A stretch of 64,000 bases of DNA, taken from the NCBI GenBank assembly GCA_963817385.1, contig CAWFOM010000005.1, forward strand, positions 194,596 through 258,595, in the 5' to 3' direction. The DNA comes from an uncultured delta proteobacterium (GTDB lineage: Bacteria > Desulfobacterota > Syntrophia > Syntrophales > UBA5619). The first letter of the stretch is position 1. Each line of letters opens with the position of its first letter. The position numbers and the translations under genes are program-made. Shown here piece by piece: positions 31,303-56,702 of this stretch. The notes beneath the pieces are model-generated. The model worked only from the letters and a program-made list of their open reading frames with translations. It was not told the origin of the DNA and did not search any database.

Positions 31303-32052
31303 TTACTTCTTCCCGGACAACTGCCCCGCCACCGAGGCGGTGGCCTTGGCAACGGCCTCCTGGTCGCCCAGGTAGTAGTGGTTGACGGCATGGAGCTGAT
31401 CATCCAGTTCATAGACGAGGGGGATCCCCGTCGGGATATTCAGCTCCGTGATCACCTCGTCGGGGATCTTGTCCAGATATTTCACCAGGGCGCGCATGCT
31501 GTTTCCGTGGGCCGCGATGAGGGCCCGTTTCCCCCTGCGGAGGTCCGGAACGATCACCTCATGCCAGTAGGGAAGGACCCGTTCGAGGGTGTTCTTGAGC
31601 GATTCCGTCCGCGGCACTTCTTCCGGCTTCAGACCCGCATATCGGGGATCTCGTCCCGGGAACCGTTCGTCCGACTCGTTGAGTGCCGGGGGGGGAGTAT
31701 CGTAGCTCCGCCGCCAGACATGCACCTGCTCCATCCCGAATTTTTCGGCGGTCTCCTTCTTGTTGAGCCCCTGCAGGGCGCCGTAATGGCGTTCGTTGAG
31801 CCTCCAGGAGCGGGTGACGGGGATCCACATCAGGTCCATCTCGTCCAGGGCGATCCAGAGCGTCCGGATCGCCCGCTTGAGGACCGATGTGTAGGCAAGG
31901 TCAAATACATGGCCTCTCTCCTTCAGGAGCCTTCCCGCCTCGTGCGCCTCGCGGATCCCCTGTTCGGTCAGATCGACGTCGGTCCAGCCGGTAAAACGGT
32001 TCTCCAGGTTCCAGGTGCTCTCCCCATGACGCAGTAAAACCAGCCTGATCAT
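31303..32052 (-). CDS. gpmA: 2,3-bisphosphoglycerate-dependent phosphoglycerate mutase
   Basis: 249 aa with [25 protein letters not shown] and a full-length match. Confidence 0.95.
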
Positions 32053-32161
32053 CGCTCTCCTCCATTATGATTCATGAATGGTTTCTGAAGTTCATGCCGC
32101 TTCGACCGAAGTCTAAGAAGTATGGCATATCTTGAGAGTAACGGCAAGGGTCTAAAAGTGT

Positions 32162-32203
32162 CAAAAAAGGAAGAGGGCAGTCCCCGGGAAGGAACTGCCC
32201 TCT
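32162..32203 (-). terminator. Rho-independent terminator downstream of the 69-aa gene
   Basis: On the minus strand: AGAGGGCAGT-(12 nt loop)-ACTGCCCTCT followed by TCCTTTTTTG. Confidence 0.65.
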
Positions 32204-32345
32204 CTTTACCCATTGCAGGTGCGTCTTGAACCGCTCGCTTCATCGAGAAGCGGGGGCGGCGATAAAAAACCTGCCCGGATCCTGCACCCAAAACCGAACA
32301 AGCATCCGGCTCAGCCATGCATCGGGATGCTGTTACTCTTGTAGT

Positions 32346-32555
32346 CTAACCGACCTTGGGGGCCGTCTTGACCCGGCGGGATGATGTCAAAATCGGCCCC
32401 TCGGAGAAGACAATCACAATACCGATAAGGCAGACAAAGGCGCCGACAAACGCACAAATAATTTGGACGAATGTCGGTGGCTCAAAAACACTTATAAGAC
32501 ATAGCCCCGTAATTGCAACAATTATGGTAACGAGCCCACCCAGCTTTTCTAACAT
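32346..32555 (-). CDS. Small 2-TM membrane protein (69 aa), copy 1
   Basis: MLEKLGGLVTIIVAITGLCLISVFEPPTFVQIICAFVGAFVCLIGIVIVFSEGPILTSSRRVKTAPKVG. A GGGAGG RBS is present. 55 of 69 residues are identical to the ORF at 34817-35026. Confidence 0.65.
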   Translation of the reverse strand: MLEKLGGLVTIIVAITGLCLISVFEPPTFVQIICAFVGAFVCLIGIVIVFSEGPILTSSRRVKTAPKVG

Positions 32556-32676
32556 ATTTACCTCCCTGCATATGTGATTCGGAAAATCAGGATACCCTGG
32601 TCCGACTACCAGCACGGATCCTCGGACCAGATATGTAAGTGAATGATCGCTACTAATGTAGTTAATGATTACTTGT

Positions 32677-32706
32677 ATAATAGTTAATACTAACTTATAA
32701 TGTCAA
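32677..32706 (-). promoter_or_regulatory. Sigma70-like promoter for the 69-aa gene (TTGACA-18-TATTAT)
   Basis: Minus strand: TTGACA (32706-32701), 18-nt spacer, TATTAT (32682-32677). The spacer shares AAGTTAGT...CTATTA with the promoter at 33670-33698. Confidence 0.45.
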
Positions 32707-32978
32707 GGTAATTTTTAACAGATAATTTTTCAGGCGGAAGATAAAAAAAGTCCATGTCCAAACGGTGACAATGGATAAGTAGAATGATGCGTTGTTGAAA
32801 GTTCCATTAAATCCGATTTTCGTTATGAGAGGGAAAAGCGTTAACATGTTGGCTGGCTTGAGTTTGAGTGATATGGAGCCCGGCTCAAGCCAGCTAAAAA
32901 TTGCGGAAGAAGGCTGAGGAAGCGTGCATCTAAATTGCTGCAACCACTAAGGCCGGCGTTATGAAAGGAAGCCCAGCC

Positions 32979-33305
32979 ATGGAATGGAAGAAAATTGTGG
33001 CCATCATTCGAAAGGATAAGCTGCGAGACGTAGAAGAGTGCCTGAAAGATCTTCGGGTAAAAGGTATCAGTGTGACGAGGGGAAAAGGCTACGGGGAGTA
33101 TGCAAACTTTTTTTCATCGGACTGGTGCGTGATGCATGCCCGGATCGAGATATATTGTGAACCCTCACGAACGGACGGGATCATCCAGGCCATTATGGAT
33201 GCAGCCCATACCGGGTCGGCGGGCGATGGTATCGTGGCCTTGATTCCAGTGGAAAAGCTGTACAGGATTAGAAGCAAGACAGAAGCGAAATATGAGGAAG
33301 AATAG
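32979..33305 (+). CDS. P-II (GlnB)-family signal-transduction protein with a short, atypical T-loop
   Basis: MEWKKIVAIIRKDKLRDVEECL...GISVTRGKGYG...GDGIVALIPVEKLYRIRS matches the P-II fold signature. It is not next to amtB or glnA. Confidence 0.8.
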   Translation: MEWKKIVAIIRKDKLRDVEECLKDLRVKGISVTRGKGYGEYANFFSSDWCVMHARIEIYCEPSRTDGIIQAIMDAAHTGSAGDGIVALIPVEKLYRIRSKTEAKYEEE

Positions 33306-33428
33306 GGAATTAAGCTTTCCCCGCGGGCAGCGAAAAAATACCGTCGGGAAGACGCCGCGGCCGCAACGGCAGATAGCTACAGCAATTGAACCATCATGCC
33401 CACCGCCTTGACTGCGGTCGCAAAGTTC

Positions 33429-33590
33429 CTATGAGCCATACCGCCTCAGAAAGGCCATGACGAACACAAGCACAAAAAAAGCCATCCCAACACATGCTAA
33501 GGCGATTCGTATATATTTCTTGGTCTTGCTTTCCTCCTCAGGTTGAGCCGTCCCTATAACGTCCCGTAATACGCTGCGTACTTCTTTCAT
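33429..33590 (-). CDS. Small single-TM protein (53 aa), absent from the ORF track
   Basis: MKEVRSVLRDVIGTAQPEEESKTKKYIRIALACVGMAFFVLVFVMAFLRRYGS. A GGAGGTG RBS lies 4 nt upstream, and a strong promoter lies further upstream. Confidence 0.5.
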   Translation of the reverse strand: MKEVRSVLRDVIGTAQPEEESKTKKYIRIALACVGMAFFVLVFVMAFLRRYGS

Positions 33591-33669
33591 GTCACACCTC
33601 CAAAAATAGTTATCAGATATGTCGAGTCATACTGCTTGCCTTACGATACATAAGTTATTGTTTGTATAT

Positions 33670-33698
33670 TTAATAGTGAATGATAACTAACTTGTCAA
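33670..33698 (-). promoter_or_regulatory. Sigma70-like promoter for the 53-aa gene (TTGACA-17-TATTAA)
   Basis: Minus strand: TTGACA (33698-33693), 17-nt spacer AGTTAGTTATCATTCAC, TATTAA (33675-33670). Confidence 0.45.
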
Positions 33699-33843
33699 GA
33701 GGAATTGGTGCAGAGAAAAAAATGCGTTCTTGCGGGGAATGACTTCTATGCAACGGAGATTTTTGATGGACTCGTGGGAATGGGAGCGGCGACGCATCCT
33801 GCGGGTAAAAAATTGTCACCGAAGGCGAACCCGGCAGAGGATT

Positions 33844-34446
33844 TTAGCGACGGGCAACGGCGTCGCGGTAGATCTGCCAGAGGGAGGTGTACTTTTCGAT
33901 CAGCTTGAAGCTGCCCTCGCTGAGGGACCAGATGTTCACCAGTCCCTGGATGAGGGCGAAGAGCAATGTCGCTGAGGCCTCCAGGTCAATGTCTTTGCGG
34001 ACAGCGCCGTCTCGGACCCCGTCGGAGAGGAGTTCCTTCAGACGGGAGATGTATTTGCTGATCGCCTGAGACGCCTGTTTGTTAAGTTTTCGATCGCCGA
34101 GGCTGATGATCTCGGCAATGACCTGAAAGGAGATTCCCTTGCGCAGGTCGATTGCGGAAAAATGATTCCCGATGATTTTCTCGATGGTGTCGAGTGTAAC
34201 CGGTTCAGCACCCGCACGCTCCGGCGAGATGTCCCGGAGAAGGATCTCTTCGATATGGCTGAGCAGGAAGGAGAGGATACTCTTCTTGCTCGTGAAATGG
34301 CGGTAGATGGCCGCTTCGGAAATGCCGACCTGCGCGGCGATCCTCTTGACTGTTAGATGTTCGCTGCCGTATTTGAAGATCAGCTTCGCTGCGGCCTCGA
34401 TTATCTGCTGCTGCCTGAATTCCGTATTTTTTCTCTTTGTGACCAT
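33844..34446 (-). CDS. TetR/AcrR family transcriptional regulator
   Basis: It has the N-terminal HTH FRQQQIIEAAAKLIFKYGSEHLTVKRIAAQVGISEAAIYRHFTSK. The start is taken at the ATG at 34446, which has an AGGAG RBS. Confidence 0.9.
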   Translation of the reverse strand: MVTKRKNTEFRQQQIIEAAAKLIFKYGSEHLTVKRIAAQVGISEAAIYRHFTSKKSILSFLLSHIEEILLRDISPERAGAEPVTLDTIEKIIGNHFSAIDLRKGISFQVIAEIISLGDRKLNKQASQAISKYISRLKELLSDGVRDGAVRKDIDLEASATLLFALIQGLVNIWSLSEGSFKLIEKYTSLWQIYRDAVARR

Positions 34447-34582
34447 CGCCCCCGCTCCTGGAATAGATCCACCGGACCATGCCCCGGTCATTTGGCCAAA
34501 AAGCCGCGTTAGTTTTGACGTACCGGGGGTACGAACGTATCGGAAGTTTCACTGCACGGGGATGCAATAAAATATCGGTATC

Positions 34583-34611
34583 AATATAATGAACCGCGAG
34601 GACAAAATCAA
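34583..34611 (-). promoter_or_regulatory. Candidate promoter of the TetR gene (TTGATT-17-TATATT)
   Basis: Minus strand hexamers lie at 34611-34606 and 34588-34583. The palindrome CGTACC-ggg-GGTACG (34519-34533) lies between the promoter and the start codon and could be an operator. Confidence 0.35.
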
Positions 34612-34816
34612 ACTATTTTCTCTGATATACAAATGGGTGGGCTAAGGGGTTGTTGCCGTGATAAGATCAACGGGTGAGGCCCCACGGAACGGCCGGATGG
34701 CCCGACTGATCTGCTTCCCGTCGGGATTGGTGATCGCCACCATCGCCAGTAACAGCAGAACAAGCAATATCGGCAGAGTTTAGGAAAATCACATCGGAAG
34801 CCGTTACTCTTGTAGT

Positions 34817-35026
34817 CTAACCGACCTTGGGGGCCGTCTTGACCCGGCGGTCTTTTGTAAGAATCTGCCCCTCAGCGAAGCAAAACACAACGCCGATAAG
34901 ACAGACAAAGCTGCCGACTAACGCACAGATAATTTGGACGAATGTCGGCGGCTCAAAAACACTGATAAGCGCTAACCCTATGACTGCGACGACTATGGTA
35001 ACGAACCCACCCAGTTTTTCCAACAT
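34817..35026 (-). CDS. Small 2-TM membrane protein (69 aa), copy 2
   Basis: It is a paralog of 32346-32555. Nucleotide similarity extends about 25 nt past the stop codon (GTTACTCTTGTAGT shared). Confidence 0.65.
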   Translation of the reverse strand: MLEKLGGFVTIVVAVIGLALISVFEPPTFVQIICALVGSFVCLIGVVFCFAEGQILTKDRRVKTAPKVG

Positions 35027-35045
35027 ATTTGATCCCCCATTACGA

Positions 35046-35309
35046 CTAACATTGAAATCCGCTCGCGACGGGCGCGGAGCCGGAGACAGGTCGTATGATC
35101 GATTTGTTCCGTATATTCGGTTTTCGTTGACGAATCGTTGTCCGGACCATTAGCCTTTTCCCGAAGTGCACAATGGTGTAAAGCATGAGACAGCCGACGG
35201 CAATCACCAGACAAAAAATGATCATGGCATGCACGGGCAGCTTGGTGATCAGCGACCACAGAATGAAATTACCGGCGATGGCGCCGACTACAGACAAAAA
35301 ATGTCGCAT
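35046..35309 (-). CDS. Hypothetical small membrane protein (87 aa)
   Basis: An AGGAGG RBS lies 6 nt upstream. It has two hydrophobic helices. It lies between dctM and copy 2 of the 69-aa gene. Confidence 0.55.
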   Translation of the reverse strand: MRHFLSVVGAIAGNFILWSLITKLPVHAMIIFCLVIAVGCLMLYTIVHFGKRLMVRTTIRQRKPNIRNKSIIRPVSGSAPVASGFQC

Positions 35310-35395
35310 CTTTTTCCTCCTGATGGTGGTTTTCGCGAATCAGGCAATTTTCATCCCCGCGTCGGGCGTTGAAATTCCCGGCTCGGAAGCCTCTG

Positions 35396-37334
35396 TCATC
35401 CCTTGTACACCAGGGACGGCACCCACAGACCGATCTGCGGGAAGAGGTAGAGCAAAAGATCGCCAAGCACCTGGATCACCATGAACGGCAGCATCCCGAT
35501 GAAGATCTGGTTGAGCGTCACATGCGGCGGCGCCACCCCCTTCAGGTAGAAGGCGGCCATCGCCACCGGCGGCGAGAGGAACGCCGTCTGGAGGTTCAGG
35601 GCCACGAGCAGACCGAAGAAGAGCGGATCGATGTTAAAGTGCGCCAGGAGCGGGATGAAGATCGGCATGAAGATGACGATGATCTCGGTCCACTCCAGCG
35701 GCCAGCCGAGGAGGAAGATGATCACCTGCGCCAGGAGCATGAACTGGGTCGGCGTCATGTCCATCGATTTCACCCAGTCGTTGATGATCTCCTGACCGCC
35801 CAGGAGCGCGAAGGCCGCCGCGAAGATGCTCGAACCGATGAAGAGCCAGCAGACCATGGCCGAGGTCTTGGCGGTGAGGAAGACCGACTCCTTCACGACG
35901 GTGAAGTTGAGCTGTTTGTACGCGGCCGCCAGGACAAACCCCCCGAAGGAGCCCATCGCCGCCGCTTCGGTCGGGGTCGCGAGCCCCACGACGATCGTCC
36001 CGAGGACCCCGAGGATGATAAGGGCCAGCGGGAAGAACGATCCGAGGAGCATCTTGAAGATCTCGAGACGGGCGAAGGTGAAGATTACATAAAAGATCAC
36101 CGTCCCCGCCGCAACGATGCCGAATGTGATCCAGAACACCAGGGGGGGGCGTTACGAGGCGGCGCCGTCGGTGCGGCCGGGGCAGTCTCGGCCACGGCGG
36201 CAGGCGGCTGCGGGGCCTCCGGTGCGGCCGGGGCAACCTGCGTCGCCTGACCGGGTTCGGCCGGGGGCTCCGCCAGGCCCACCGCGCCTTCCGGCTCCTG
36301 GAGACTGCCGGTGTCGGTCGAGACCTCCGTGCTCTCCGTTGACGCCATACCCATCTCTTGCACTCCCGACGTGTCGATTAACGAGGGGGCCGTCGTCCAG
36401 AGGTAGATCACCAGAACGAAGAGCGCGGCCGCGCGCCAAAGGAAGGATGGCGATGATCAGGTGACTGACCAATGTCTTCATCGGAACGTCGGCGTTCCGC
36501 TTCCCCTTGATCGCGCCGATCAATCCCGACCATGACGTTGTTGCTCTTCTTGGAGATCACTTCCGCGAACTTGGGCAGATCGACGCGCTGCTCCTCCTCG
36601 GAGAGGGGCGGGGCGATGCTCGGCTTGAGCTTCGCGGAGATGATGATGTAGCCGAGATAGAGGGAGGTCAGCATGAGGCCGGGCAAAAAGGCCCCAGCGT
36701 AGAGCTGGACGACCGAGACGCCCGCGGTCGCGCCGTAGAGGATCAGGAGGACCGACGGCGGGATCAGGATGCCGAGGGTCCCCCCCGCGGTCACGACCCC
36801 CGCCGAGAGACGGATGCTGTATCCGGCCTTGAGCATCGCCGGAAAGGCAAGGAGGCCCATGAGCGTCACGACCGCGCCGATGATCCCGGTGGCGGTGGCG
36901 AAGATCGCGCAGGTGATGACCGTCGCGACGGCGAGCGACCCGGGGATCCGGGAGGTCGCCAGGTGGAGACTCTTGAAGAGCCTGCCGATCAGGTTGGCCC
37001 GTTCGACGAGGTACCCCATGAAGACGAAGAGCGGTATCGAGATCAGAACGTCGTTGTTCATGACGGCATAGGCCCGCTGCGACACCAGATCGAACGTATG
37101 GTCCACCGCCGTATTCGGGTTTTGGCTGTAATAGGCGAAAAAGGCGAACATCGTCCCCATCCCCATGAGGGTGAAGGCGGTGGGAAAGCCGAGCATGATC
37201 GCGATGACGATCATCGCCAGCATTAAAAGGCCCAGGTGGCCGTCGGTCCACTGTGACGGCGGGGGCATCATCCAGAACACGCCGATCACCACCAGTGCCA
37301 TGATAGATAATCCGAACCAGGCTTCTTTTCTCAT
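35396..37334 (-). pseudogene. dctM: TRAP transporter large permease (DctM, FcbT3-like) with a long internal insertion and three frame disruptions
   Basis: The N-terminal part is ORF 36408-37334 and the C-terminal part is ORF 35396-36139. The segments between them read sensibly only by switching frames at about 36524, about 36430 and in the G8 run at 36142-36149. The insertion contains a Pro/Ala/Glu/Thr-rich tract. Confidence 0.85.
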
Positions 37335-37957
37335 TTGTCGCCCCCTTTTCCGTGCGTCACATACTCATCGAGCTTCGCGATATCATCGTCGGTGACGTGC
37401 ACCGTCGCCTTCAGTTTCTCGACGTCGACCTCCTCGACGTCCTGGATGCGCGAGGGCCACTTGCCATCCTTCAGGCACAGGACGCAGCGGACCATCTCGA
37501 CGAAGCCCTGCACGAGGATAAACGCCCCGGCGATCGGGATGATGGTCTTGAAGTGGTAGAGAGGCGGACCGTCGGCGGTGATGCTCGAATGCTCGAAGAT
37601 CCGCCAGGAGTCGCCGGCATAGTAGAAGCCGGCCCAGCAGAGGGCGGTCACCCCGGGGAGGAAAAAGAGGATGTAGAGCGTCAGGTCGAGGGCGGCCTGC
37701 ACACGCTGCGGGAAGAAACCGTAGAGGACGTCGCCGCGGACCATGCCGTTCTTCGAGAGGGTGTAGGCGCCCGCCATCATGAACAGGATCCCGTACATCT
37801 GGATCATGATATCGAAGGCCCACGAGTGCGGTGCGTCCATGGCGTAGCGAGCGTACACCTCGTAGGTGATCAGAAAGGTGAGCCCCACGATGAGCCAGGA
37901 GAACGCCTGGCCGGCAAATGTGCTGATCTTGTCGATGGTAAGCAGTAATTTCTGCAT
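37331..37957 (-). CDS. dctQ: TRAP transporter small permease (DctQ, FcbT2-like)
   Basis: 208 aa with 4 TM helices. Its stop overlaps the dctM start (ATGA). Confidence 0.85.
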   Translation of the reverse strand: MQKLLLTIDKISTFAGQAFSWLIVGLTFLITYEVYARYAMDAPHSWAFDIMIQMYGILFMMAGAYTLSKNGMVRGDVLYGFFPQRVQAALDLTLYILFFLPGVTALCWAGFYYAGDSWRIFEHSSITADGPPLYHFKTIIPIAGAFILVQGFVEMVRCVLCLKDGKWPSRIQDVEEVDVEKLKATVHVTDDDIAKLDEYVTHGKGGDK

Positions 37958-38028: not shown

Positions 38029-39213
38029 TTACTTCTTCTTCGGTTCGGCCTTCGCGGGTTCAGCCTTTGCGGGTGCGGCCTTCCTGCCGAAGTAGTGGTT
38101 ATAGGCCATGCGCCGGTTGACGTTGGTATCCATGTCCCAGGCCACCGTGCGCTTGGCAAACTCTATCTGCGATGCGACGATCTCCTTGAACAGGGGGTTA
38201 TCCGCCGACTTCTTCTTCACGATCTCATCATAGAGGACGAGCTCCCTGGCCAGGATCGCGTCGGGGGTCTTGTAGAACTTCACCTTGTCCTTGGTCTGGA
38301 GCTCGATGTAGTCCTTCGAGTAGCGGTCAATCGACTTCCAGGACATGTCGGCCGAGGCGGCTTCCACGCCGTTGTCGATGATCGCCTTCAACTTGGCGGG
38401 CAGCGCGTCGTACTTGGTCTTGTTGAACAGGATTTCGAACTGCTCCGCGTTTTGGTGGAAGCTCTGGAGCATGCACACCTTCGAGACGTCGGGGAAACCG
38501 AGCAGCCGGTCGGACGAAGCATTGTTGAACTCCGCCCCATCCAGCAGGCCGCGATCCAGGGCCGGGACGATCTCGCCGCCGGGGAGGGCGTTCACCGCAC
38601 AGCCCAAGGCGGTGAAGAGGTCGACGGAGAGACCCACGGTCCGGAACTTGAGCCCCTTGAGGTCCTCGATCTTGGTGATGGGCTTCTTGAACCAGCCGAA
38701 GGGCTGCGTAAACATCGGCCCGTAGGGGAAAGAGGCGACGTTCGCGCCGATGGATGCATAGAGCTTCGCCAGCAACTCCTTGCCGCCGCCGTACTTGTGC
38801 CAGGAGAGGAGCATGTTGGCGTCCATACCGTAGCCGGGGCCCGATCCCCAGAGGGCCAGGGCGTTCTGCTTGCCGTAGTGGTAGACGATGACGCCGTGGG
38901 CGCCGTCGAGCGTCCCCTTGGAGACCGCATCCAGAACGCCGAAGGCCGGGACGACGGAGCCGGCAGGGAGCACTTCGATCTTGAGATCGCCGCCGGTCAT
39001 GTCGTTGATCTTCTTGGCGAAGTCAAGGGCATACTCGTGGAAGATGTCCTTGGTCGGCCAGGTGCTCTGCCATCTCATGCTGATCGGCCCCTGCGCCTTG
39101 AGGATCGAGGGGAACCCCAGGGTTGCGGCCCCGGCCGTCACTGCGGCAGCGGCGGTGAGAAAATTGCGGCGTGATACGCCCTTCGTCTCTTTACCCAGTA
39201 CTTTCTTTGTCAT
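38029..39213 (-). CDS. dctP: TRAP transporter substrate-binding protein (DctP/FcbT1-like) with a twin-arginine signal
   Basis: MTKKVLGKETKGVSRRNFLTAAAAVTAGAATLG is a Tat signal. A DctP-like core follows, then a Lys/Ala/Pro-rich C-terminal tail. An AAGGAGGAGGG RBS precedes the ATG at 39213. Confidence 0.88.
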   Translation of the reverse strand: MTKKVLGKETKGVSRRNFLTAAAAVTAGAATLGFPSILKAQGPISMRWQSTWPTKDIFHEYALDFAKKINDMTGGDLKIEVLPAGSVVPAFGVLDAVSKGTLDGAHGVIVYHYGKQNALALWGSGPGYGMDANMLLSWHKYGGGKELLAKLYASIGANVASFPYGPMFTQPFGWFKKPITKIEDLKGLKFRTVGLSVDLFTALGCAVNALPGGEIVPALDRGLLDGAEFNNASSDRLLGFPDVSKVCMLQSFHQNAEQFEILFNKTKYDALPAKLKAIIDNGVEAASADMSWKSIDRYSKDYIELQTKDKVKFYKTPDAILARELVLYDEIVKKKSADNPLFKEIVASQIEFAKRTVAWDMDTNVNRRMAYNHYFGRKAAPAKAEPAKAEPKKK

Positions 39214-39530
39214 AATACCCTCCTCCTTAGTTATTGGTAAAAATTGACTGCCTGACTTGAGAACCCATTCACCCGACACTAATTAACAGGACCTATGCCG
39301 AAACCCTGCGGTTTCGGTTAATCGGTTGCCATTTTACCGGTGTTCTGCGAATCGTTTATCCAATGCATGTAAGGCAGAGATGAGAGAATATGACGAGGGG
39401 ACCATTTCCTGCTGAACGCATCCGACATGTGGTTAATATCCAACATCAATCATCCCGTTCGCGAGAACCGCACAACCAAGGCATCTGAAAGATTGCTAAA
39501 TTATATTAATCACTTATATAAGCGCATCGT

Positions 39531-39715: not shown

Positions 39716-40426
39716 TCAGAAGTGCAATTTGTCTCTCAGCACCCGAAGGTAGCGGCGGCTCACGGGGACAAGCCGGCCCGATTTCGTCTTGATGTCGGCA
39801 AGCATGTTTTCGCGGAGGATGATTTCGTCCACCAAATTAATATTGACAAGGAACTGCTTGTGGCATCGGACGAGCGGAGTCTTGTTCTCGATAACCTGGA
39901 GGGTGAGTTCCGTGTAAAACTCGCCGCCGGAGGTGATCACATACACCCCCGCCTCACCGGATCGGACATATTCGATCTCCTCCACATCGATGAGTTTGAT
40001 GGTAAAGGCTTGGAGGCAGGGAATCTTCTGAATATCGGAACCCGTAAACACCGTTTTACCGCCCTCGGCAAACCTTTTCTTGAGTTTCTCCACGGTCTTC
40101 AGGAGCCGCTCTTTTTCGACCGGCTTGAGCAGGTAGTCGAGGGCGTTTTCCTCGAAGGCCTTGAGGGCGTATTCGTCATACGCGGTGACAAAAACGACGT
40201 CCGGCATGAGATTCCCGTCGATCATCCCGAGCAGCTCGAATCCGTTGATCACCGGCATCTGGATATCAAGGAACAGCACATCGGGTTTTTCCTTCCTGAT
40301 GGCCTGTATCGCCTCCAGGGCGTTGGCGCATTTCCCCGCGACCGTAAATTCACCGGTCTCGTTGAGCATGGCCTCCAGTTCTTGACGGGCATAGATCTCA
40401 TCATCGACGATCAGGGCGCGCATCAT
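39716..40426 (-). CDS. LytTR/LytR-family response regulator
   Basis: 236 aa with a receiver domain (ALIVDDE...DVLFLDIQMP) and a C-terminal LytTR domain. Confidence 0.93.
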   Translation of the reverse strand: MMRALIVDDEIYARQELEAMLNETGEFTVAGKCANALEAIQAIRKEKPDVLFLDIQMPVINGFELLGMIDGNLMPDVVFVTAYDEYALKAFEENALDYLLKPVEKERLLKTVEKLKKRFAEGGKTVFTGSDIQKIPCLQAFTIKLIDVEEIEYVRSGEAGVYVITSGGEFYTELTLQVIENKTPLVRCHKQFLVNINLVDEIILRENMLADIKTKSGRLVPVSRRYLRVLRDKLHF

Positions 40427-42099
40427 GACGCATGGCTCTCCAGAGGAATTTGCACGGTAACCCGCGTGACCTCATTCGGCACGCAGGAGATCGCCACCCC
40501 GGAATCACTGCCGAAATGCCCCTTGAGCCGTTTGTCGACGATCTTGATCCCGTGGCCGTCGTCCGTTACCTTCTCGTGATAGATCCCGGCATTATCCTCG
40601 ATCTCGATGAACGCCCGGCCATCCGTCCGAAAGGCCTTGATCCTGGCCACCCCCGGCCCCATCGTCCGCGAAATCCCGTGTTTGAAGGCGTTCTCGACGA
40701 GCGGCTGCAGGGTGAAGGTGGGAAGGATCACCGTGAGCAGGGAGGGGTCGATATCGATCTCGACCGCCAAACGATCGTCGTAGCGCGCCTTCTCGATCTG
40801 CAGATAGGAATTCACCTGGTCGAGTTCCTCCTCCAGTGTCGACAGATCATTGCCGCGCTTGAGGTTCTTGCGGAAAAAGTTGGACAGATGGATGAGCAGA
40901 TCCTTGCACCGCGCGGCGTCGATCCTGAGGACCGCGATGATCGTATTGAGGGAGTTGAACAGGAAGTGCGGGTTCACCTGCGCCTGGAGGAGTTTCAGTT
41001 CGGACTGCACCAGGAGGTTCTTCTGCATCTCATAGCGGGCCTGGAGCAGCTGGTTCGACAGGAGACGCGCAATCCCCTCGCCGAGGGTTTTGTTCATATT
41101 GAGAAAGCGCTTGTTCTTGGGTTCGAAGAGCTGGATCGTCCCGATCACGTCATTGTCGATATGGAGGGGAACCACGAGCACGGAGGTCAGCGGGCAGGTC
41201 TCCGACAGCGGGCAGGTGTACCGGTCATGTCCGCCGGCGGCGAACATGACCCGGTTTTCCCGGATCGCCTTCAGGGAGAAGGGGGACGCGAGCTGATTGC
41301 CCGGCTGGTGGTGATCCGTACCCTGGCCGACAAAGGCCAGCACCTTCTCCTTATCGGTAATGGCCACCGCACCCACGCCGGTTTCCTTATGGATGATCTT
41401 CGCCAGCGCTACGGCCGATTCACCGGTGATGCCCTTCGCAAGGATGTTCAGCGTCCTCTCCGCGATCTTGAACGCCTTTGTCGAGGAGACGGCGGCAATC
41501 CGATCGACCATGTTCTTCTGGTCGCGGATGATGCTCATGAACAGGGCGGCGCCGACGGCGTTCGAGGCGATCATCGGGACGGCGATAACCTTGACCAGGG
41601 TCACGGCATTGTCGAAAGGACGGGAGATCAGGAGAATGACGGCCATCTCGAGAATCTCCGCGCCGAAGGCGGTGAGAAAGGCGATCTTCGGATCGAACAG
41701 GGACTCCGACCGGTTCTTCCTCGACAGATGCCAATGGACGAGCCCGCCGATCATCCCCGCGAGCGTGGTTGCGAGTCCGCAGGAGGTGGCGGTAAATCCT
41801 CCCAGAAAATAGCGATGGACCCCGCCGGTGAATCCTACGGCCGTTCCGAGCATGGGTCCCCCGATGATGCCTGCCAATACCGCGCCGATGGCCCGGGTGT
41901 TGGCGATGGCGTCATGGACGGGCGTGCCCAGATAGGTGCCCAAGATCGACAGGCACGAGAAGACGACGTAGAGGTAGAGTTTGTCGATCGCACTGATCGT
42001 GTCCGTGGTCAGGGACTTGAACAGCGGGGATTTGCAGTAGATGTAGGCGATAACCACAAAAACCGACATCGCCTGGGTCATACGAAAGAGAATTTCCAT
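40423..42099 (-). CDS. LytS/YehU(BtsS)/YpdA-type sensor histidine kinase (5TM-Lyt, GAF, His_kinase domains)
   Basis: 558 aa with a polytopic N-terminus, a central GAF-like region and the NPHFLFNSLN motif. Its stop overlaps the regulator start. Confidence 0.93.
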   Translation of the reverse strand: MEILFRMTQAMSVFVVIAYIYCKSPLFKSLTTDTISAIDKLYLYVVFSCLSILGTYLGTPVHDAIANTRAIGAVLAGIIGGPMLGTAVGFTGGVHRYFLGGFTATSCGLATTLAGMIGGLVHWHLSRKNRSESLFDPKIAFLTAFGAEILEMAVILLISRPFDNAVTLVKVIAVPMIASNAVGAALFMSIIRDQKNMVDRIAAVSSTKAFKIAERTLNILAKGITGESAVALAKIIHKETGVGAVAITDKEKVLAFVGQGTDHHQPGNQLASPFSLKAIRENRVMFAAGGHDRYTCPLSETCPLTSVLVVPLHIDNDVIGTIQLFEPKNKRFLNMNKTLGEGIARLLSNQLLQARYEMQKNLLVQSELKLLQAQVNPHFLFNSLNTIIAVLRIDAARCKDLLIHLSNFFRKNLKRGNDLSTLEEELDQVNSYLQIEKARYDDRLAVEIDIDPSLLTVILPTFTLQPLVENAFKHGISRTMGPGVARIKAFRTDGRAFIEIEDNAGIYHEKVTDDGHGIKIVDKRLKGHFGSDSGVAISCVPNEVTRVTVQIPLESHAS

Positions 42100-50954: not shown

Positions 50955-52478
50955 TTACAGCGATTCCACGTTGAGGGTGACCTTCCCGTATCCGAGCTTC
51001 TTCATCACCGCGCGAAACACCGGCGTCAGATAGGCCAGGATGGCCGCCCCCATAAAGAGCAGCGAGATGGGACGGACAAAGAAGATGCTGAAATCACCCC
51101 CCGACAGCATCAGGGATTGGCGGAGCGAGTTTTCCGCCAGCCGCCCCAGGACCAATGCCAGGACCAAAGGCACGATCGGATACTTGAGCTTATTCATGAT
51201 ATAGCCCAGGATGCCGAAGCCGAGCATCATCCAGACGTCGAAGACGTTGTTGTTGGTCGTGAAGGCCCCGACCGTGGCGAAGATGACGATGAAGCACATG
51301 AGGATCGTATAGGGCACCCGCAAAAGCGAGACGAAGACCGGGATGAGGAAGATGTTCATCAGGACCAGGAGGAGATTCCCGATGAACTTGCTCGATATGA
51401 GGCCCCAGACCAGATCGGCGTTGTTCTGGAAGAGGAGCGGACCGGGCCTGATCCCCCACATCATGAAGCCGGCCAGCATGACCGCCGTCGTCGGGGAGCC
51501 GGGGACACCCAGGGCGAGGAGCGGAGCAAAGCCGCTGATCGAGGCGGCGTTGTTCGCCGCTTCGGGCGAGGCGATCCCCTCGATGATGCCGGTGCCGAAC
51601 TTCTCCGGATGCCTGGAGACCCGCTTCTCGGCGAGGTAGGCGAGAAACGAGGCGGTCGTGATCCCCCCGGCGGGGATGAGCCCGATGAAGAACCCGATGA
51701 CCCCGCCCCGGAAGATCGCCCAGCGCGACGCGATCCAGTCATCCCAGGTGAGGAACATATCCTTCAGCTTTATCTTCTGCTTGAGCAGTCCCCGCTCCTC
51801 CCCCTGTTCCAGGCTGTTGAACACCTCGGCCAGGCCGAAGATGCCGCAGATGATGACGATAAAGTCGATTCCTCCCATCAGTTGAGGGGTGCCGAAGGCG
51901 TAACGGGGGACGCCGCTCATAATATCGAGCCCGATGACCGAGATGAAAAGCCCCACCAGGGTGGAGATGATGATCTTCATGGGATCGCCCCCGCCGAAGA
52001 CGGTGAGCATCCCGAATGCCATCATCGCCAGGCCGAAGTATTCGGGCGGTCCGAAACGGAGCGCGAACTTGGCCAGGGCCGGGGCGAACGACATCAAGAG
52101 GACCACGGAGAGCGTTCCGGCGATCCAGGAGCCGATCGCCGCCACGGAGAGGGCCGCCCCCGCGCGTCCTTTCATGGCCATCTGATACCCGTCGAGGCAG
52201 GTCATCACCGACGAGGATTCCCCGGGGACGTTGATAAGAACCGACGTGATCGTGCCGCCGTAGGCCACGCCGTAGTAGATCCCGGCAAACAGGATGATCG
52301 CCGAGGTGGGGTTGACCGAGAAGGTCAGGGGGAGCAAGAGGGCGACCGCGGTGGGCGCCCCGATCCCCGGCAGGACCCCGACGAGCTGACCCACGATACA
52401 TCCGGCAAGGCAGTACAAGAGATTTTCCCACGTCAGGGAGATGGAAAAACCCATCATCAAATTGTTCCAGAGTTCCAT
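50955..52478 (-). CDS. tctA: Tripartite tricarboxylate transporter large permease
   Basis: 507 aa with the TctA-family N-terminus (LAGCIVGQLVGVLPGIGAPTAVALLLPLTF). Confidence 0.93.
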   Translation of the reverse strand: MELWNNLMMGFSISLTWENLLYCLAGCIVGQLVGVLPGIGAPTAVALLLPLTFSVNPTSAIILFAGIYYGVAYGGTITSVLINVPGESSSVMTCLDGYQMAMKGRAGAALSVAAIGSWIAGTLSVVLLMSFAPALAKFALRFGPPEYFGLAMMAFGMLTVFGGGDPMKIIISTLVGLFISVIGLDIMSGVPRYAFGTPQLMGGIDFIVIICGIFGLAEVFNSLEQGEERGLLKQKIKLKDMFLTWDDWIASRWAIFRGGVIGFFIGLIPAGGITTASFLAYLAEKRVSRHPEKFGTGIIEGIASPEAANNAASISGFAPLLALGVPGSPTTAVMLAGFMMWGIRPGPLLFQNNADLVWGLISSKFIGNLLLVLMNIFLIPVFVSLLRVPYTILMCFIVIFATVGAFTTNNNVFDVWMMLGFGILGYIMNKLKYPIVPLVLALVLGRLAENSLRQSLMLSGGDFSIFFVRPISLLFMGAAILAYLTPVFRAVMKKLGYGKVTLNVESL

Positions 52479-52492
52479 ACGCTAAACCCTTT

Positions 52493-52945
52493 CTACCACC
52501 CGATCATGCCCATGGGCAGCGGGATATCCAGCCACTGGGCAAAGACGATATGAATGAAGATGGCCGATATCACCGCCGTTACGCCGCACGTCATTATCTT
52601 ATGCTTCCCGATGATCCGCATGGCCGCGGCCGTGCAAAGAGCAAGCCCGACCGAGAATCCTACAAACGGGAACAGGAGAAAGGTGATGACAATCAGGGCC
52701 AGCATCTGGAATCCCAGTTTGGACCGTGGAGAAAGAAAAGCCCCCATATCGGCGCCGCCTTTCTTCCGGAAAACTTTGAGCACTTCGAAAACGCCGCCGA
52801 CCAAAACACCGATGCCGATCCAGAAGGGGAGGAATCCGGCACCCGGGCCCAAATCCGTGTAATAATGGAGCGGGAGGGAAAAAACGACGATGAAGAGACC
52901 GAGCAGCAAAACTGCCCCTGCCCCGATTAACTCAGCGCGCCACAT
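52493..52945 (-). CDS. tctB: Tripartite tricarboxylate transporter small permease
   Basis: 150 aa with 4 TM helices. It lies between tctC and tctA. Confidence 0.8.
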   Translation of the reverse strand: MWRAELIGAGAVLLLGLFIVVFSLPLHYYTDLGPGAGFLPFWIGIGVLVGGVFEVLKVFRKKGGADMGAFLSPRSKLGFQMLALIVITFLLFPFVGFSVGLALCTAAAMRIIGKHKIMTCGVTAVISAIFIHIVFAQWLDIPLPMGMIGW

Positions 52946-53188
52946 GCATTATTCTCCTTCACATTCCGATCGTCACCTACTCCCCGGACAGGACTTTCGG
53001 GGGAGGTATGTCAGGTAAATACGATTTCCGGTACTTCGCCGATATGCCCCCGGCTAAACTCCGTCCCGTCAGAGAAACACGCCGGGGGTAACGCGATCGA
53101 TCGGTCGCCACGGCAGGTAGTCCAGGCGATCATAAGCCGAACACACCTGCCGCGGCGCCATGTTTGATGTCATTGTACAACCAGAGGC

Positions 53189-54175
53189 CTATTTCAGGAT
53201 CTCCAGTTCCCGCAGGATGTCCCCAAAGAGCTTTTCATTCTTCACGACGAACTGCGAAAACTCCTTGCTCCCCAGGAAGTAAGGGCTGAGCATATACTGC
53301 TTCAGGTACTTTTCCTTCCACATTGTCGTCTCGGTCATCTTCTTCATGAGAGTCTCATAATAGGCGGCCGCTTCCGGAGAGATCTTCGGGGGGGCGGCGA
53401 TCCCGCGGAAGAAGAAAAAGATGACGTCATACCCTTTCTCCTTGAAGGTGGGAACATCCTTCAACAGGGTAAGACGGCTCTCCTTCGCCACGGCAAGGGG
53501 CCGGACCATCTTGGCGTCGTACTGCGGGACGAATTCGCTCGGATTGGCCCAGATCATGTTGACATGACCGCCCAAGAGCGCCGTGATGCACTCCCCGCCG
53601 CTGTTGAAGGGGATGTAGCGCAGCTTGATGCCCGCCGCCTTCTCGAAGAGGCGGTTGCACATCTGATCTTCCTGCCCCGTGCCCGTCCCCGCAATAGTCA
53701 GGGTCTGCTTTTTTGCCGCCGCGACGATGTCTTCGATCGTCTTATAGGGAGAGTCCGTCTTGACGACGATGAGCTGTTCATCCAGGGCCAGGTTGGCGAT
53801 CATGGTGAGATCCTTGTAGGTCGCCGACCCCTTCCCCACCACCATCGGAGCAGTGATCTGGCCGGAGATGAAGGTCACCAACATATGGTCATTGCCGGGC
53901 TGCTGGGCGACCGACGTCTGACCGATGGTACCGCTCCCGCCGGGCTGATTGACCACCAGAAACCGTTCCGGGCAGAGCTTCTCGCTCTTGATGGCGGTGT
54001 CGATGGAGCGGGCGAAGACGTCGCTGCCGCCGCCCGGCGCAAAGGGAGCGACTATGGTGATCGGTTTGGTCGGCTTGAATTCGGCGGCCAGCACCCCGGC
54101 GCTGTACACGAAGAACGCCAGCGTGACCAGCACGACTGCCTGCAACATCTTTCCTCTGTACGGGCTTGCTTTCAT
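53189..54175 (-). CDS. tctC: Tripartite tricarboxylate transporter substrate-binding protein (Bug family)
   Basis: It has a signal peptide and the PFAPGGGSDVFAR motif. The start is taken at MKASPYRG. Confidence 0.88.
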   Translation of the reverse strand: MKASPYRGKMLQAVVLVTLAFFVYSAGVLAAEFKPTKPITIVAPFAPGGGSDVFARSIDTAIKSEKLCPERFLVVNQPGGSGTIGQTSVAQQPGNDHMLVTFISGQITAPMVVGKGSATYKDLTMIANLALDEQLIVVKTDSPYKTIEDIVAAAKKQTLTIAGTGTGQEDQMCNRLFEKAAGIKLRYIPFNSGGECITALLGGHVNMIWANPSEFVPQYDAKMVRPLAVAKESRLTLLKDVPTFKEKGYDVIFFFFRGIAAPPKISPEAAAYYETLMKKMTETTMWKEKYLKQYMLSPYFLGSKEFSQFVVKNEKLFGDILRELEILK

Positions 54176-54317
54176 CTCTCTTCCTCCTTTAAAGTTAATC
54201 AAAAGAATTCCTGAACACCGTAACGTTTGAATTACCCTTATCGCGCAAATATCATAAAAACCATCTTTGCGGTAAAAAATTTTACGGCTCGAACGGAATG
54301 CACCGATGATGACATCG

Positions 54318-54368
54318 GGTGGCCGCCAGATAATCCAGCGCCGCCATCACCCCGCCTTGCTTGCGGGG
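54318..54368 (-). pseudogene. Fragment of the 3' end of a serine-glyoxylate-type aminotransferase gene
   Basis: It translates to KQGGVMAALDYLAA, against KQGGVMAAMDYLAAR at the end of the intact gene at 57881-59047. The nucleotide alignment is clear by eye. Confidence 0.7.
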
Positions 54369-54374
54369 GAGGCC

Positions 54375-54546
54375 CGCGAGGCCTTCACCTTCGCGCGCAA
54401 GAACAGATTGGATCCACGGAGAGTGTGTACAAGTCATTTCCCGGGGGGCGCCGACGAATACAAAATTCGGAAAGTGCTGGGGAAACGGATGGTGGAGCGG
54501 TACGTCCCCGGGATCGAGGCACATCTCCACTACAAAGATATCCAAT
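54375..54546 (+). pseudogene. Decayed internal fragment of the tartronate semialdehyde reductase-like gene at 47187-48071
   Basis: It aligns to about 47746-47934 (EAFTFARKN.LDP...VLGKRMVER.YVPGIEA.LHYKDIQ) with substitutions and indels. It has no start or proper end. Confidence 0.8.
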
Positions 54547-54553
54547 GCCCGAA

Positions 54554-56053: not shown

Positions 56054-56094
56054 TTGACAATCCTCCTATGCGGCAGTGCTTCAGTTGGAACAGT

Positions 56095-56610
56095 TCAATA
56101 GCCCAACAGGGATTCCAGCGGCCCCTTGGGGAGCGGAACCATGAACTGAATTTCAAACATATAAAAAAGCAGTACACTGATGCCGACGCTGACCAAGATG
56201 ACTTTAGGCCAACTGAACCGGGCCATCACCCGCATGAAACCGCCGATGAACAGGGCGGAGGCGACATAGATGCCGATGAATTGGGTGGCCAGTACATAGA
56301 AAACAGCAGGTATCAGCACGCAAAGCACCTGTTTGAAGCGGTCCCAGGAAACGAAGAGCTCATGATTGCGGTGTTTGCCGAAAAGCGCCCTGAGAAAAAC
56401 AACCACGCTTGAAATACTGATGATGGCCCCGGTGCGGAACGGAAAGTATCCCGCCTGAGGCCCTTCAGGGGCCCAACCCATCCCGATTCTCTGACCGTCC
56501 ATCATCATCACAACGCCGATGAGGAAGATGGCGACTGCCACGATCAGCTCCGCTGCCTGATACGTCAACCGGACTGAACGAGGTCGTTCCTGCGTTTGTT
56601 TCTGTTCCAT
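56095..56610 (-). CDS. tctB: Tripartite tricarboxylate transporter small permease, second system
   Basis: 171 aa with 4 TM helices. It lies between tctC and tctA. Confidence 0.8.
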   Translation of the reverse strand: MEQKQTQERPRSVRLTYQAAELIVAVAIFLIGVVMMMDGQRIGMGWAPEGPQAGYFPFRTGAIISISSVVVFLRALFGKHRNHELFVSWDRFKQVLCVLIPAVFYVLATQFIGIYVASALFIGGFMRVMARFSWPKVILVSVGISVLLFYMFEIQFMVPLPKGPLESLLGY

Positions 56611-56702
56611 GCACTACCTCCCATGACGAACGGGGAAACAGCGCGCCGGTCCGGCGGTTCGAGCTCGGTACCCGAACCCGCCGGAACCGGCGTGATTCTG
56701 AA

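Follow-up and report, generated by a model that had tools for sequence, protein, structure and literature searches.

Small membrane proteins are difficult to detect, and establishing how they are regulated is more difficult still; a 64,000-nucleotide (nt) stretch of DNA from an uncultured delta proteobacterium of the Syntrophales (contig CAWFOM010000005.1, positions 194,596 to 258,595; hereafter, the window) raises the question of how a cluster of such genes was put together and how it is controlled. Two genes for two-helix membrane proteins of 69 amino acids (aa), here called 69a and 69b, are separated by genes for a TetR-family regulator, a 53-aa single-helix membrane protein, and a PII-family protein, and an interpretation made from the letters of the sequence (the original prediction) had taken this arrangement for a cassette bracketed by duplicated genes and possibly regulated by the TetR protein. 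Comparison with related loci leads us to another view of its history and a more specific one of its regulation: with a probability of roughly 0.6, a TRAP transporter operon ending in genes for a 61-aa protein and 69a is joined in the window to a unit in which a FadR-like TetR protein would repress the 53-aa gene and 69b through repeated operator-like boxes. On the minus strand, the genes run 5' to 3' in the order LytS, LytTR, dctP, dctQ, dctM, 87-aa gene, 69a, TetR, 53-aa gene, and then 69b; the PII gene lies on the plus strand between the 53-aa gene and 69b. Coordinates are collected in Table 1. Comparison loci carry L numbers; L009 is the 98 to 99% identical relative of the window from the same sample, L002 comes from Hainich groundwater, and L025 and L016 are separate contigs of one metagenome-assembled genome (MAG) from Lac Pavin.

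Tandem boxes at two small-gene promoters

Both promoters that had been described, TTGACA-18-TATTAT ahead of 69b and TTGACA-17-TATTAA ahead of the 53-aa gene, are present; the promoter scan omitted the second, its -10 hexamer ending in A. When the 69b promoters of the window, L025, and L031 were lined up with the 53-aa promoters of the window, L002, L025, and L033, the common motif was an 18-bp pseudo-palindrome, AGTnAnnnnTnACTA, which recurs with a period of 22 bp, three times at the 69b promoter and twice at the 53-aa promoter. Its core, nnAGYnAnCnTTMACTWn, is an imperfect palindrome (AGTnA....TnACT), and scores of 10 to 15 bits on the reverse strand point to dyad symmetry. Box 1 fills the spacer between the -35 and -10 hexamers and overlaps the latter, with boxes 2 and 3 lying over the transcript start (the first ~45 nt at 69b); the spacer similarity remarked upon originally, AAGTTAGT...CTATTA, is box 1 of this repeated operator-like motif. 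With a position weight matrix (PWM) built from 17 sites, the 64 kb of the window yielded only five sites of at least 9 bits, all at the 69b and 53-aa promoters, and a degenerate pattern, AGTNANNNNTNACTA, gave four matches against 0.06 expected.

The motif was examined independently in 80 metagenome loci fetched with the TetR protein as the query (54 to 97% identity), out of 454 loci with TetR homologues. At a threshold of 13 bits, these loci held 102 boxes, including 27 pairs at exactly 22 nt, and 57 of the 80 were positive; local shuffles of the same loci gave 5 to 13 boxes, no pairs, and 4 to 11 positive loci. The boxes stand, together with a TTGAC hexamer, 66 to 200 nt before open reading frames (ORFs) of 48 to 78 aa that encode one or two hydrophobic helices and belong to the 53-, 72-, and 69-aa families. 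The two-box layout of the 53-aa promoter is found again in L002, L009, L025, L033, and ~25 metagenome loci, and boxes outside the training set occur in L033 before an 84aa-57aa-69aa gene group and before a second 53-like gene. Shared regulation of 69b and the 53-aa gene, as originally proposed, is well supported by this comparison, in which boxes track TetR homologues. Because the boxes co-occur with the TetR gene, and because the nearest solved relatives of its product are Bacillus FadR proteins, we infer that the neighboring TetR protein is the putative binder.

The TetR regulator and its leader

For the TetR protein, M16 is the most likely start, which gives 200 residues. It matches PF00440 with 48.7 bits (cutoff, 24) and the YsiA-like C-terminal domain PF08359 (TetR_C_4) with 32.6 bits (cutoff, 21), and it aligns over its full length to structures of FadR, SlmA, and TtgR, the closest being Bacillus FadR (3whb and 1vi0; E = 1e-13). 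The equivalog models for FadR (NF053878, 65.2 bits against a cutoff of 200) and SlmA (NF007015, 76.9 bits against 120) are not reached, and by these scores the regulator is to be regarded as FadR-like and not as a FadR orthologue.

Its promoter and a leader of ~130 nt are conserved in L002, L023, L025, L031, and L033. The palindrome noted in this leader, CGTACCGGGGGTACG, is present at positions 34519 to 34533; its candidacy as an operator is unsupported, since it is only partly conserved, shows uncompensated mismatches in other loci, and does not resemble the boxes. A second element, CCGG-N7/8-CCGG, lies at a constant distance, ~40 nt, before the TetR start in 15 of 24 leaders of orthologues that are at least 78% identical (L002, L025, L033, L035, L036, L038, L039, L045, L047 to L049, L053, L056, and L058 among them), a count that leaves out a match in L086, a 57% homologue with a different offset. 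The loops are variable, and there is one compensatory change, C-G to T-A, in L033; the repeat may act in the RNA, as a hairpin close to the ribosome-binding site, or be a site in the DNA. In L055 (positions 24 to 85), three boxes at 22-nt spacing stand directly before TetR, an arrangement that looks like a 69b-type promoter joined to the regulator gene and that would give autoregulation there.

Relation of the two 69-aa genes

The two proteins are identical at 55 of 69 residues and the two genes at 175 of 210 nt, as had been described, and a repeat search returned the pair as a single 235-nt direct repeat with an offset of 2,471 nt. The longest identical tract, of 48 nt, takes in the stop codon together with the 31 coding nt before it and the 14 nt after it; with ~7 of the next 9 nt also matching, the originally reported similarity of about 25 nt past the stop was roughly right. 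Across codons 1 to 56, 69b shares 153 of 168 nt (91%) with the 69b gene of L025 and 137 of 168 nt (82%) with the 69a gene of its own genome. Promoters homologous to that of the window 69b precede the 69-aa genes of L025, L031, and L038, and its 3' hairpin and terminator flank recurs behind the 69-aa genes of L001, L023, L025, and L033. The Lac Pavin MAG holds both types on different contigs (61-69a-...-tctCBA in L016 and 69b-TetR-53-72-... in L025), so that the proposal of a cassette expanded by duplication in place does not hold. We regard 69a and 69b, on these identities, as old paralogues and not as the products of a recent duplication.

The b-type proteins have in common G(A/T) at residue 39, the motifs IGIVxVF and EG(S/P)IL, and usually a C terminus ending in ...EERWGKKAPKVK. 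The window 69b has the full b-type body but an a-type tail, RRVKTAPKVG, which lies exactly in the 48-nt identical tract, and for this reason we read its 3' end, and that end only, as having been converted by 69a in a short gene conversion. Derived bases in the shared 3' tract are common to both window copies and absent from other loci. The 3' flank of 69a stops at a deletion junction (34796/34795), and the remaining similarity past the stop codons is, on our reading, a 3' flank conserved throughout the family. Old paralogues can, as the locus illustrates, be made by gene conversion to look like recent duplicates.

The ~45 nt before the 69-aa start (32556 to 32600, minus strand), GGTTATCCnAATTTTCTGAATCACrTATGCAGGGAGGTTAAATATG, are conserved even in the most divergent members (seen in L001, L002, L006, L025, L027, L030, L031, and L033) and exceed the needs of a ribosome-binding site. 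This element has been lost before the window 69a and in L009, and folding gave no significant structure. An upstream mini-ORF, ATGCAGGGAGGTTAA, was rejected, as it is not conserved in L027, L030, or L033, and a structured leader was dropped, since neither the leader of 69b nor the 3' flanks of 69b and the 53-aa gene fold better than shuffled sequences (z scores of -0.4 to +0.4). An Rfam scan of 31800 to 35600 at an E value of up to 1 returned a chance microRNA match only, which indicates that no known riboswitch or small RNA is present there.

Assembly of the region and origin of the PII gene

L002 and L034 have the genes in the order 69a-tctCBA-TetR-53-72, with tctCBA intact. In the window, the segment at 34667 to 34795 is a 3' remnant of tctA, and the tctCBA operon has therefore been deleted between 69a and TetR. 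The 53-aa gene stands 3' of TetR in L002, L009, L025, L033, L034, L036, L038, L054, and other loci, and a 69-aa gene lies just upstream of this TetR-53 core in L002, L023, L025, L031, L033, L034, L036, and L038; placed beside a 69-aa gene, the pair is, on this distribution, best understood as the ancestral conserved core, which argues against the suggestion that a PII/53-aa/TetR block had been inserted as a unit. Synteny in relatives, the comparison by which the original prediction was to be judged, shows 69a following dctM and the 61-aa gene and only the PII segment as an insertion. One further deletion variant at the same junction is seen in L035 (1740 to 4000), in which a long dctM is followed by the TetR leader without a 61-aa gene, a 69-aa gene, or tctCBA, and the dctM-TetR junction looks like a rearrangement hot spot. 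Two more TctC/TctA pairs lie ~16 to 22 kb away in the window (50994 to 57620, minus strand) and are 33 to 46% identical to the deleted tctCBA.

The PII-family identity of the gene on the plus strand was correctly recognized (PF00543, 54.9 bits against a cutoff of 25). Its product most likely starts at M7, as in all its homologues. The GlnB and GlnK models are not reached (NF008111, 43.6 bits against 202; NF007946, 41.5 bits against 181). GlnB and GlnK have a T-loop of ~19 residues with a modifiable Tyr51; the T-loop of the window protein is, as stated originally, short and atypical, with 7 residues fewer than that of Thermus thermophilus GlnB. Nor is the gene linked to amtB, glnA, or nif, again in agreement with the first reading, its neighbors within ~5 kb being 69b, the 53-aa gene, TetR, a gpmA-like gene, and the TRAP genes; the gpmA-like gene, past the terminators of 69b, we take to be gpmA from its RHGESTWN motif.

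One or two 72-aa small-protein genes follow the 53-aa gene in relatives, as in L002, L025, L033, and L034, and in the window and L009 the insert that carries PII stands in their place. The coding sequence (32974 to 33310) is the only part that matches PII loci, with 88.7% nucleotide identity to L010. In three lineages, the homologues sit among genes for heavy-metal P-type ATPases, YHS, DUF2933, ICMT-like, SHOCT, and CueP proteins; tblastn found no heavy-metal genes in the window. The 270 nt ahead of PII have homologues in L009 and nowhere else among the fetched loci, and no PII promoter was detected in the promoter scan. A hairpin at 32849 to 32897 (plus strand), ~85 nt before the PII start, has 14-nt arms, ~16 paired bp, and a folding energy of -27.4 kcal/mol (z = -4.6); it lacks a T-run and has no other copies in the window. 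Because the homology is confined to the coding sequence and the position to the window and its near-identical relative L009, PII is to be seen as a late, solitary insertion and not as part of the conserved module; as a member of the proposed cassette it is the one foreign piece. The comparisons thus lend good support to a history in which tctCBA was deleted, the 72-aa gene or genes were replaced by a stray PII gene, and the 3' end of 69b was converted by 69a.

The TRAP operon and its small genes

The window encodes DctP, DctQ, and DctM together, and dctM is intact in L009. The order dctP-dctQ-dctM-61aa-69aa is kept in every TRAP-linked locus, 14 or more in number (L001, L002 to L005, L006 to L008, L009, L018 to L022, L024, L026, L028, and L029), confirming that 69a and the 61-aa-family gene belong downstream of dctPQM; the LytS/LytTR pair ahead of dctP is found in L002 to L005 as well. 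The gene described as encoding an 87-aa membrane protein is indeed a membrane protein gene after dctM, but the product is 61 aa in all relatives: an 8-nt insertion relative to L009 swaps the last 10 residues and stretches the ORF to 87 aa. A 70-nt insertion relative to L009 lies at 35051 to 35120, ahead of 69a, and neither insertion has copies elsewhere in the window or in the fetched loci. The gaps dctM-61aa and 61aa-69a are 86 and 19 nt, respectively. As these gaps are short and the scan found no promoter or strong terminator in them, the 61-aa gene and 69a are probably cotranscribed with dctPQM.

In this clade, DctM is ~645 aa long and has an insert of ~200 aa between its two Pfam half-matches, made up of a hydrophobic helix, a ~90-residue low-complexity linker rich in Pro, Ala, and Glu, and a second helix; the large TRAP subunit therefore has 14 helices (L009, 877 to 2814; L002, 5724 to 7658; window, 36100 to 36560). 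The window dctM carries three uncompensated single-base indels (36521, 36433, and a C-run near 36141) relative to the intact 645-aa L009 gene, which split it into ORFs of 308, 104, and 247 aa, and the other long genes of the window are intact. Either the window copy is a pseudogene or the assembly is locally wrong in the GC-rich stretch that encodes the linker. In genomes that lack the TetR module (L001, 8452 to 15476; L006, 8485 to 13450), the genes downstream of the TRAP-61-69 operon encode a 2-hydroxyacid dehydrogenase, a GntR/FCD regulator, a FAD-linked oxidase, and CCG-domain proteins; this neighborhood suggests a lactate-, glycolate-, or pyruvate-like TRAP substrate.

Small-protein families

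The 69-aa protein had 397 matches in a collection of 5.8 billion proteins, nearly all of exactly 69 aa, and forms a narrow family of 21 clusters among 1.84 billion representatives (clusters at 50% identity), in which no fusion to a known domain was found, a single 1,732-aa repetitive protein being probably spurious. In 185,579 species genomes, the gene occurs at 18 loci, all in Syntrophales/Syntrophobacterales-like "deltaproteobacterial" MAGs. The AlphaFold model (pLDDT, 69) is a helical hairpin of residues 2 to 24 and 28 to 64 with the turn at an invariant E-P-P. The 53- and 61-aa proteins also recur at many loci. No Pfam or NCBIfam profile matched the 53-, 61-, 69-, and 72-aa proteins above curated cutoffs, and a common origin of the four families was rejected (hhalign probability of at most 13%).

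Ratios of nonsynonymous to synonymous substitution (dN/dS), measured against the window copies, were 0.26 to 0.64 for 69a, 0.2 to 0.45 for the 61-aa protein (one pair, 0.87), and 0.3 to 0.7 for the 53-aa protein, compared with 0.05 to 0.3 for the neighbors dctQ, dctM, and TetR at the same dS of 0.2 to 0.7. On these values, the small ORFs are coding genes subject to purifying selection, with moderate constraint; for the 69-aa ORFs, the number of matches and a dN/dS below 1 dispose of the possibility, raised as a test of the original prediction, that they are not conserved as coding sequence. Constraint on the 69-aa gene at the nucleotide level was rejected, its dS of 0.18 to 0.73 being similar to those of dctQ, dctM, and TetR. 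In some genomes, as many as seven genes for small membrane proteins are grouped about TetR (84, 57, 69, 53, ~31, 50, and 72 aa), and stacked sets (L033, 9407 to 10125 and 11532 to 12419; L025, 5084 to 5873; L104) include tandem 53- and 72-aa copies and a 61-like gene; the set therefore expands and contracts between lineages.

Table 1. Positions of features in the window
Feature	Position	Strand	Basis
Terminator region after 69b: conserved hairpin and T-run (~32262-32310) and 15-bp-stem terminator (32171-32204)	32171-32310	-	Terminator scan
69b (copy 1 of the original prediction), two-helix membrane protein, own promoter	32346-32555	-	ORF, translation
69b boxes, three at 22-nt spacing (32680-32697, 32658-32675, 32636-32653)	32636-32697	-	PWM, 20.9, 22.0, and 18.2 bits
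69b promoter, TTGACA-18-TATTAT	32677-32706	-	11/12 consensus positions
Lineage-specific insert carrying PII; left edge approximate	32707-33358		Homology downstream of 53-aa gene ends at 33359
PII-family gene, 108 aa from M7, short T-loop, solitary	32979-33305	+	PF00543, 54.9 bits
53-aa single-transmembrane protein gene	33429-33590	-	Conserved downstream of TetR
53-aa promoter boxes (33673-33690, 33651-33668)	33651-33690	-	PWM, 22.4 and 13.5 bits
53-aa promoter, TTGACA (33698-33693)-17-TATTAA (33675-33670)	33670-33698	-	Sequence read directly
TetR-family regulator, 200 aa, FadR/YsiA-like	33844-34446	-	PF00440, 48.7 bits; PF08359 (TetR_C_4), 32.6 bits
TetR promoter, TTGATT-17-TATATT (34611-34583), and conserved leader	34447-34611	-	Promoter scan, alignment
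CCGG-N8-CCGG hairpin in TetR leader	34470-34487	-	15 close orthologue leaders
3' remnant of tctA	34667-34795	-	Aligns to last ~130 nt of L002 tctA, with indels
48-nt perfect tract, read as gene conversion footprint	34803-34850 = 32332-32379		Longest identical tract
69a (copy 2 of the original prediction), last gene of TRAP operon	34817-35026	-	Conserved order dctP-dctQ-dctM-61aa-69aa
61-aa-family two-transmembrane gene, here an 87-aa ORF with altered C terminus	35046-35309	-	First 51 residues as in L009 61-aa protein
dctM, frameshifted in window	35396-37334	-	Pfam DctM (PF06808)
dctQ	37331-37957	-	Pfam DctQ (PF04290)
dctP	about 38029-39279	-	Pfam DctP (PF03480)
LytTR response regulator	39716-40426	-	Pfam
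LytS-type histidine kinase (5TMR-LYT)	40423-42099	-	Pfam

Discussion

A small-membrane-protein regulatory module, as first supposed, is conserved in relatives of the window, and we propose the following way in which it might operate. The TRAP operon dctP-dctQ-dctM-61aa-69a is probably driven by a promoter under the control of the adjacent LytS/LytTR two-component system, while the 53-aa gene and 69b would be transcribed from strong sigma-70 promoters overlaid by the tandem boxes. The 22-bp spacing places the boxes on the same face of the helix, and TetR dimers may bind them cooperatively, keeping RNA polymerase out. Release of the repressor by a ligand, either lipophilic or a metabolite, would be followed by a burst of small inner-membrane proteins, and of its two 69-aa proteins the cell would make one along with the transporter and the other in response to the TetR signal. 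The comparisons show or strongly support both the cis-regulatory logic and the evolutionary history; as to the biochemical role of the small proteins, our conjecture is that they most likely bind and tune membrane transporters or stabilize the membrane under ionic or solute stress.

Several observations weigh against the joint scheme of a TRAP operon and a TetR unit. The small proteins evolve 2 to 4 times faster than their neighbors; the -10 hexamer of the 53-aa promoter ends in A and varies between loci; and the window TetR promoter has no box, so that the usual autoregulation is not evident. The NCBIfam models for FadR and SlmA fall well below their cutoffs for the TetR protein. The frameshifted dctM may mean that the operon bearing 69a is decaying or that the assembly is wrong, and the long dctM of L035, followed directly by TetR without 61- and 69-aa genes, counts against the small proteins being indispensable to the transporter.

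With regard to how the region arose, direct repeats 2,471 nt apart with a perfect 48-nt tract across the stop codon are what would be expected had a recent duplication in place, or the insertion of a block, left the 69-aa genes as flanking repeats, but this is very unlikely. Outside the tract, 69b is nearer to the gene of another MAG than to 69a, a comparison that largely refutes the bracketing duplication; it carries the three-box promoter and terminator of that other gene, and many genomes with neither PII nor a second copy have TetR-53 next to a 69-aa gene. Between 31300 and 39300 there is neither a transposase or integrase gene nor a terminal inverted repeat, as a composite transposon or cassette would have, and the junction of 69a and TetR, as the tctA remnant shows, was formed by deletion. 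It is highly improbable that PII is a working part of the module, acting on the TRAP permease or on the small proteins as GlnK does on AmtB or SbtB on SbtA: the gene is intact, stands between two regulated small genes, and diverges from 69b, but its restriction to the window and L009, its coding-only homology, the heavy-metal ATPase setting of its homologues in three other lineages, and the lack of a detected promoter speak for a stray insertion. The boxes themselves, though real, might be bound by another factor or reflect a shared promoter and leader architecture, for which the box-free TetR promoter of the window, a MarR gene 1.5 kb upstream in L025, and the AT-rich composition of boxes that overlap the -10 hexamer could be cited. 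We consider this unlikely, since the motif tracks TetR homologues from 97% down to 54% identity whichever small gene follows, its dyad symmetry over 14 to 16 bp, apparent from the reverse-strand scores, is typical of TetR operators, other regulators are not conserved neighbors, and the boxes partly resemble the Bacillus FadR operator (PMC5397183).

For the function of the module, two readings may be set out. The 61- and 69-aa proteins could be integral extra subunits of a TRAP class with a 14-helix DctM, 69b being a TetR-controlled isoform swapped in for 69a; the strict dctPQM-61-69 order, always with the ~645-aa DctM and its two extra helices, the narrowness of the fusion-free 69-aa family, and the occurrence of TetR modules after tctCBA and TAXI-TRAP genes all favor this, yet the long DctM occurs in L035 with no small genes beside it and 69b-type genes occur away from TRAP genes in L025, L031, and L038, and we would entertain such subunits only tentatively. 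Alternatively, the TetR regulon may be a response to membrane, ionic, or osmotic stress that consists of small membrane proteins only, its link with the TRAP genes being mere neighborhood. Distant TetR homologues stand beside MscS-type channels (L078, L099, and L039) and a trehalose-6-phosphate synthase (L078), with Na+/H+ exchangers and Mrp (L039 and L002), a CLC channel (L025), and an amino-acid permease fused to a universal stress (Usp) domain (L039) nearby; these are a handful of annotated loci, however, whose homologues, at 56 to 60% identity, may belong to a different orthologous group, and we give a stress-related regulon about the same tentative weight as the TRAP subunits. The stress-gene neighborhoods span 2528 to 6118 in L078, 1332 to 3734 in L099, and 15 to 8492 in L039, where TetR homologues are 56 to 86% identical. 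A combination, in which the 61- and 69-aa proteins are TRAP subunits with 69b as the swap-in isoform and TetR heads a small-protein-only regulon (53, 61, 69, and 72 aa) that retunes transporters in syntrophs, is distinctly speculative.

The locus is of wider value in several respects. It brings together four small-protein families that lack annotation (53, 61, 69, and 72 aa), a cis-regulatory code that is clear, with 18-bp boxes repeated every 22 bp, a candidate repressor whose gene is conserved in many Syntrophales-like genomes from the environment, and a natural pair of paralogues wired to two control systems, a putatively LytS/LytTR-controlled TRAP operon and a TetR regulon. A full-text search of the literature gave no relevant report of extra small TRAP subunits or of TetR regulons of small membrane proteins. 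If the small proteins are transporter partners, the TRAP family gains an architecture and syntrophic organic-acid uptake gains a layer of control; if they are not, the locus is still a tidy, testable example of a small-protein-only repressor regulon.

Comparison with known systems

Small membrane proteins that tune transporters and are coregulated with them are familiar from Escherichia coli, in AcrZ with AcrB, KdpF with KdpABC, and MgtS with MgtA, and AcrZ shares regulators with acrAB. The window proteins resemble these in size (~30 to 70 aa), in having one or two helices, and in being encoded in or near transporter operons or under a stress regulator; they differ in that there is no sequence similarity and that their putative transporter link is one of gene context. 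We know of no counterpart among transporter-tuning small proteins to two paralogues under two different control systems.

The LytS/LytTR systems BtsSR and YpdAB of E. coli sense carboxylates and control pyruvate transporters. The window likewise has a 5TMR-LYT kinase and a LytTR regulator directly ahead of transporter genes, and here the putatively regulated transporter is a TRAP system. That system shares all three domains, DctP, DctQ, and DctM, with the TRAP transporters DctPQM and SiaPQM, and it departs from them in its ~645-aa DctM with an insert and in the two extra small genes that follow; the DctM of the window clade scores 255.6 with TIGR00786, just below the cutoff of 268.45.

For the PII gene, the nearest likeness is PII-NG, which PMC7726332, in the passage that cites Sant'Anna 2009, gives as a PII clade linked to czcABC metal efflux. 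Going by that passage, the two have in common a PII fold outside GlnB/GlnK and, for the homologues of the window gene, a place in metal resistance clusters, but the neighbors of the latter are P-type ATPase, YHS, DUF2933, and ICMT genes and not czcABC, and the likeness is one of genomic context.

The regulator itself is best compared with Bacillus FadR (YsiA; PDB 3whb, 1vi0, and 5gp9), its closest solved homologue (E = 1e-13 to 7e-11), with which it shares the TetR_N plus TetR_C_4 architecture. Bacillus FadR is an acyl-CoA-responsive repressor of the TetR family whose operators, of the form GATGAATGAATACTCATTCAT, are pseudo-palindromes bound by more than one dimer (PMC5397183). Its half-site TCATTCA is present in two of the window boxes, but the box consensus is AGTnAnnnnTnACTA and not TGAATGA...TCATTCA, and the boxes are separate sites 22 bp apart. 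The targets of Bacillus FadR are enzymes of fatty acid degradation, whereas those predicted here are small membrane proteins. TetR repressor-operator systems as such are well known, and the window appears to hold a variant in which the predicted targets are orphan small membrane proteins and which adjoins a TRAP operon that carries two additional small genes.

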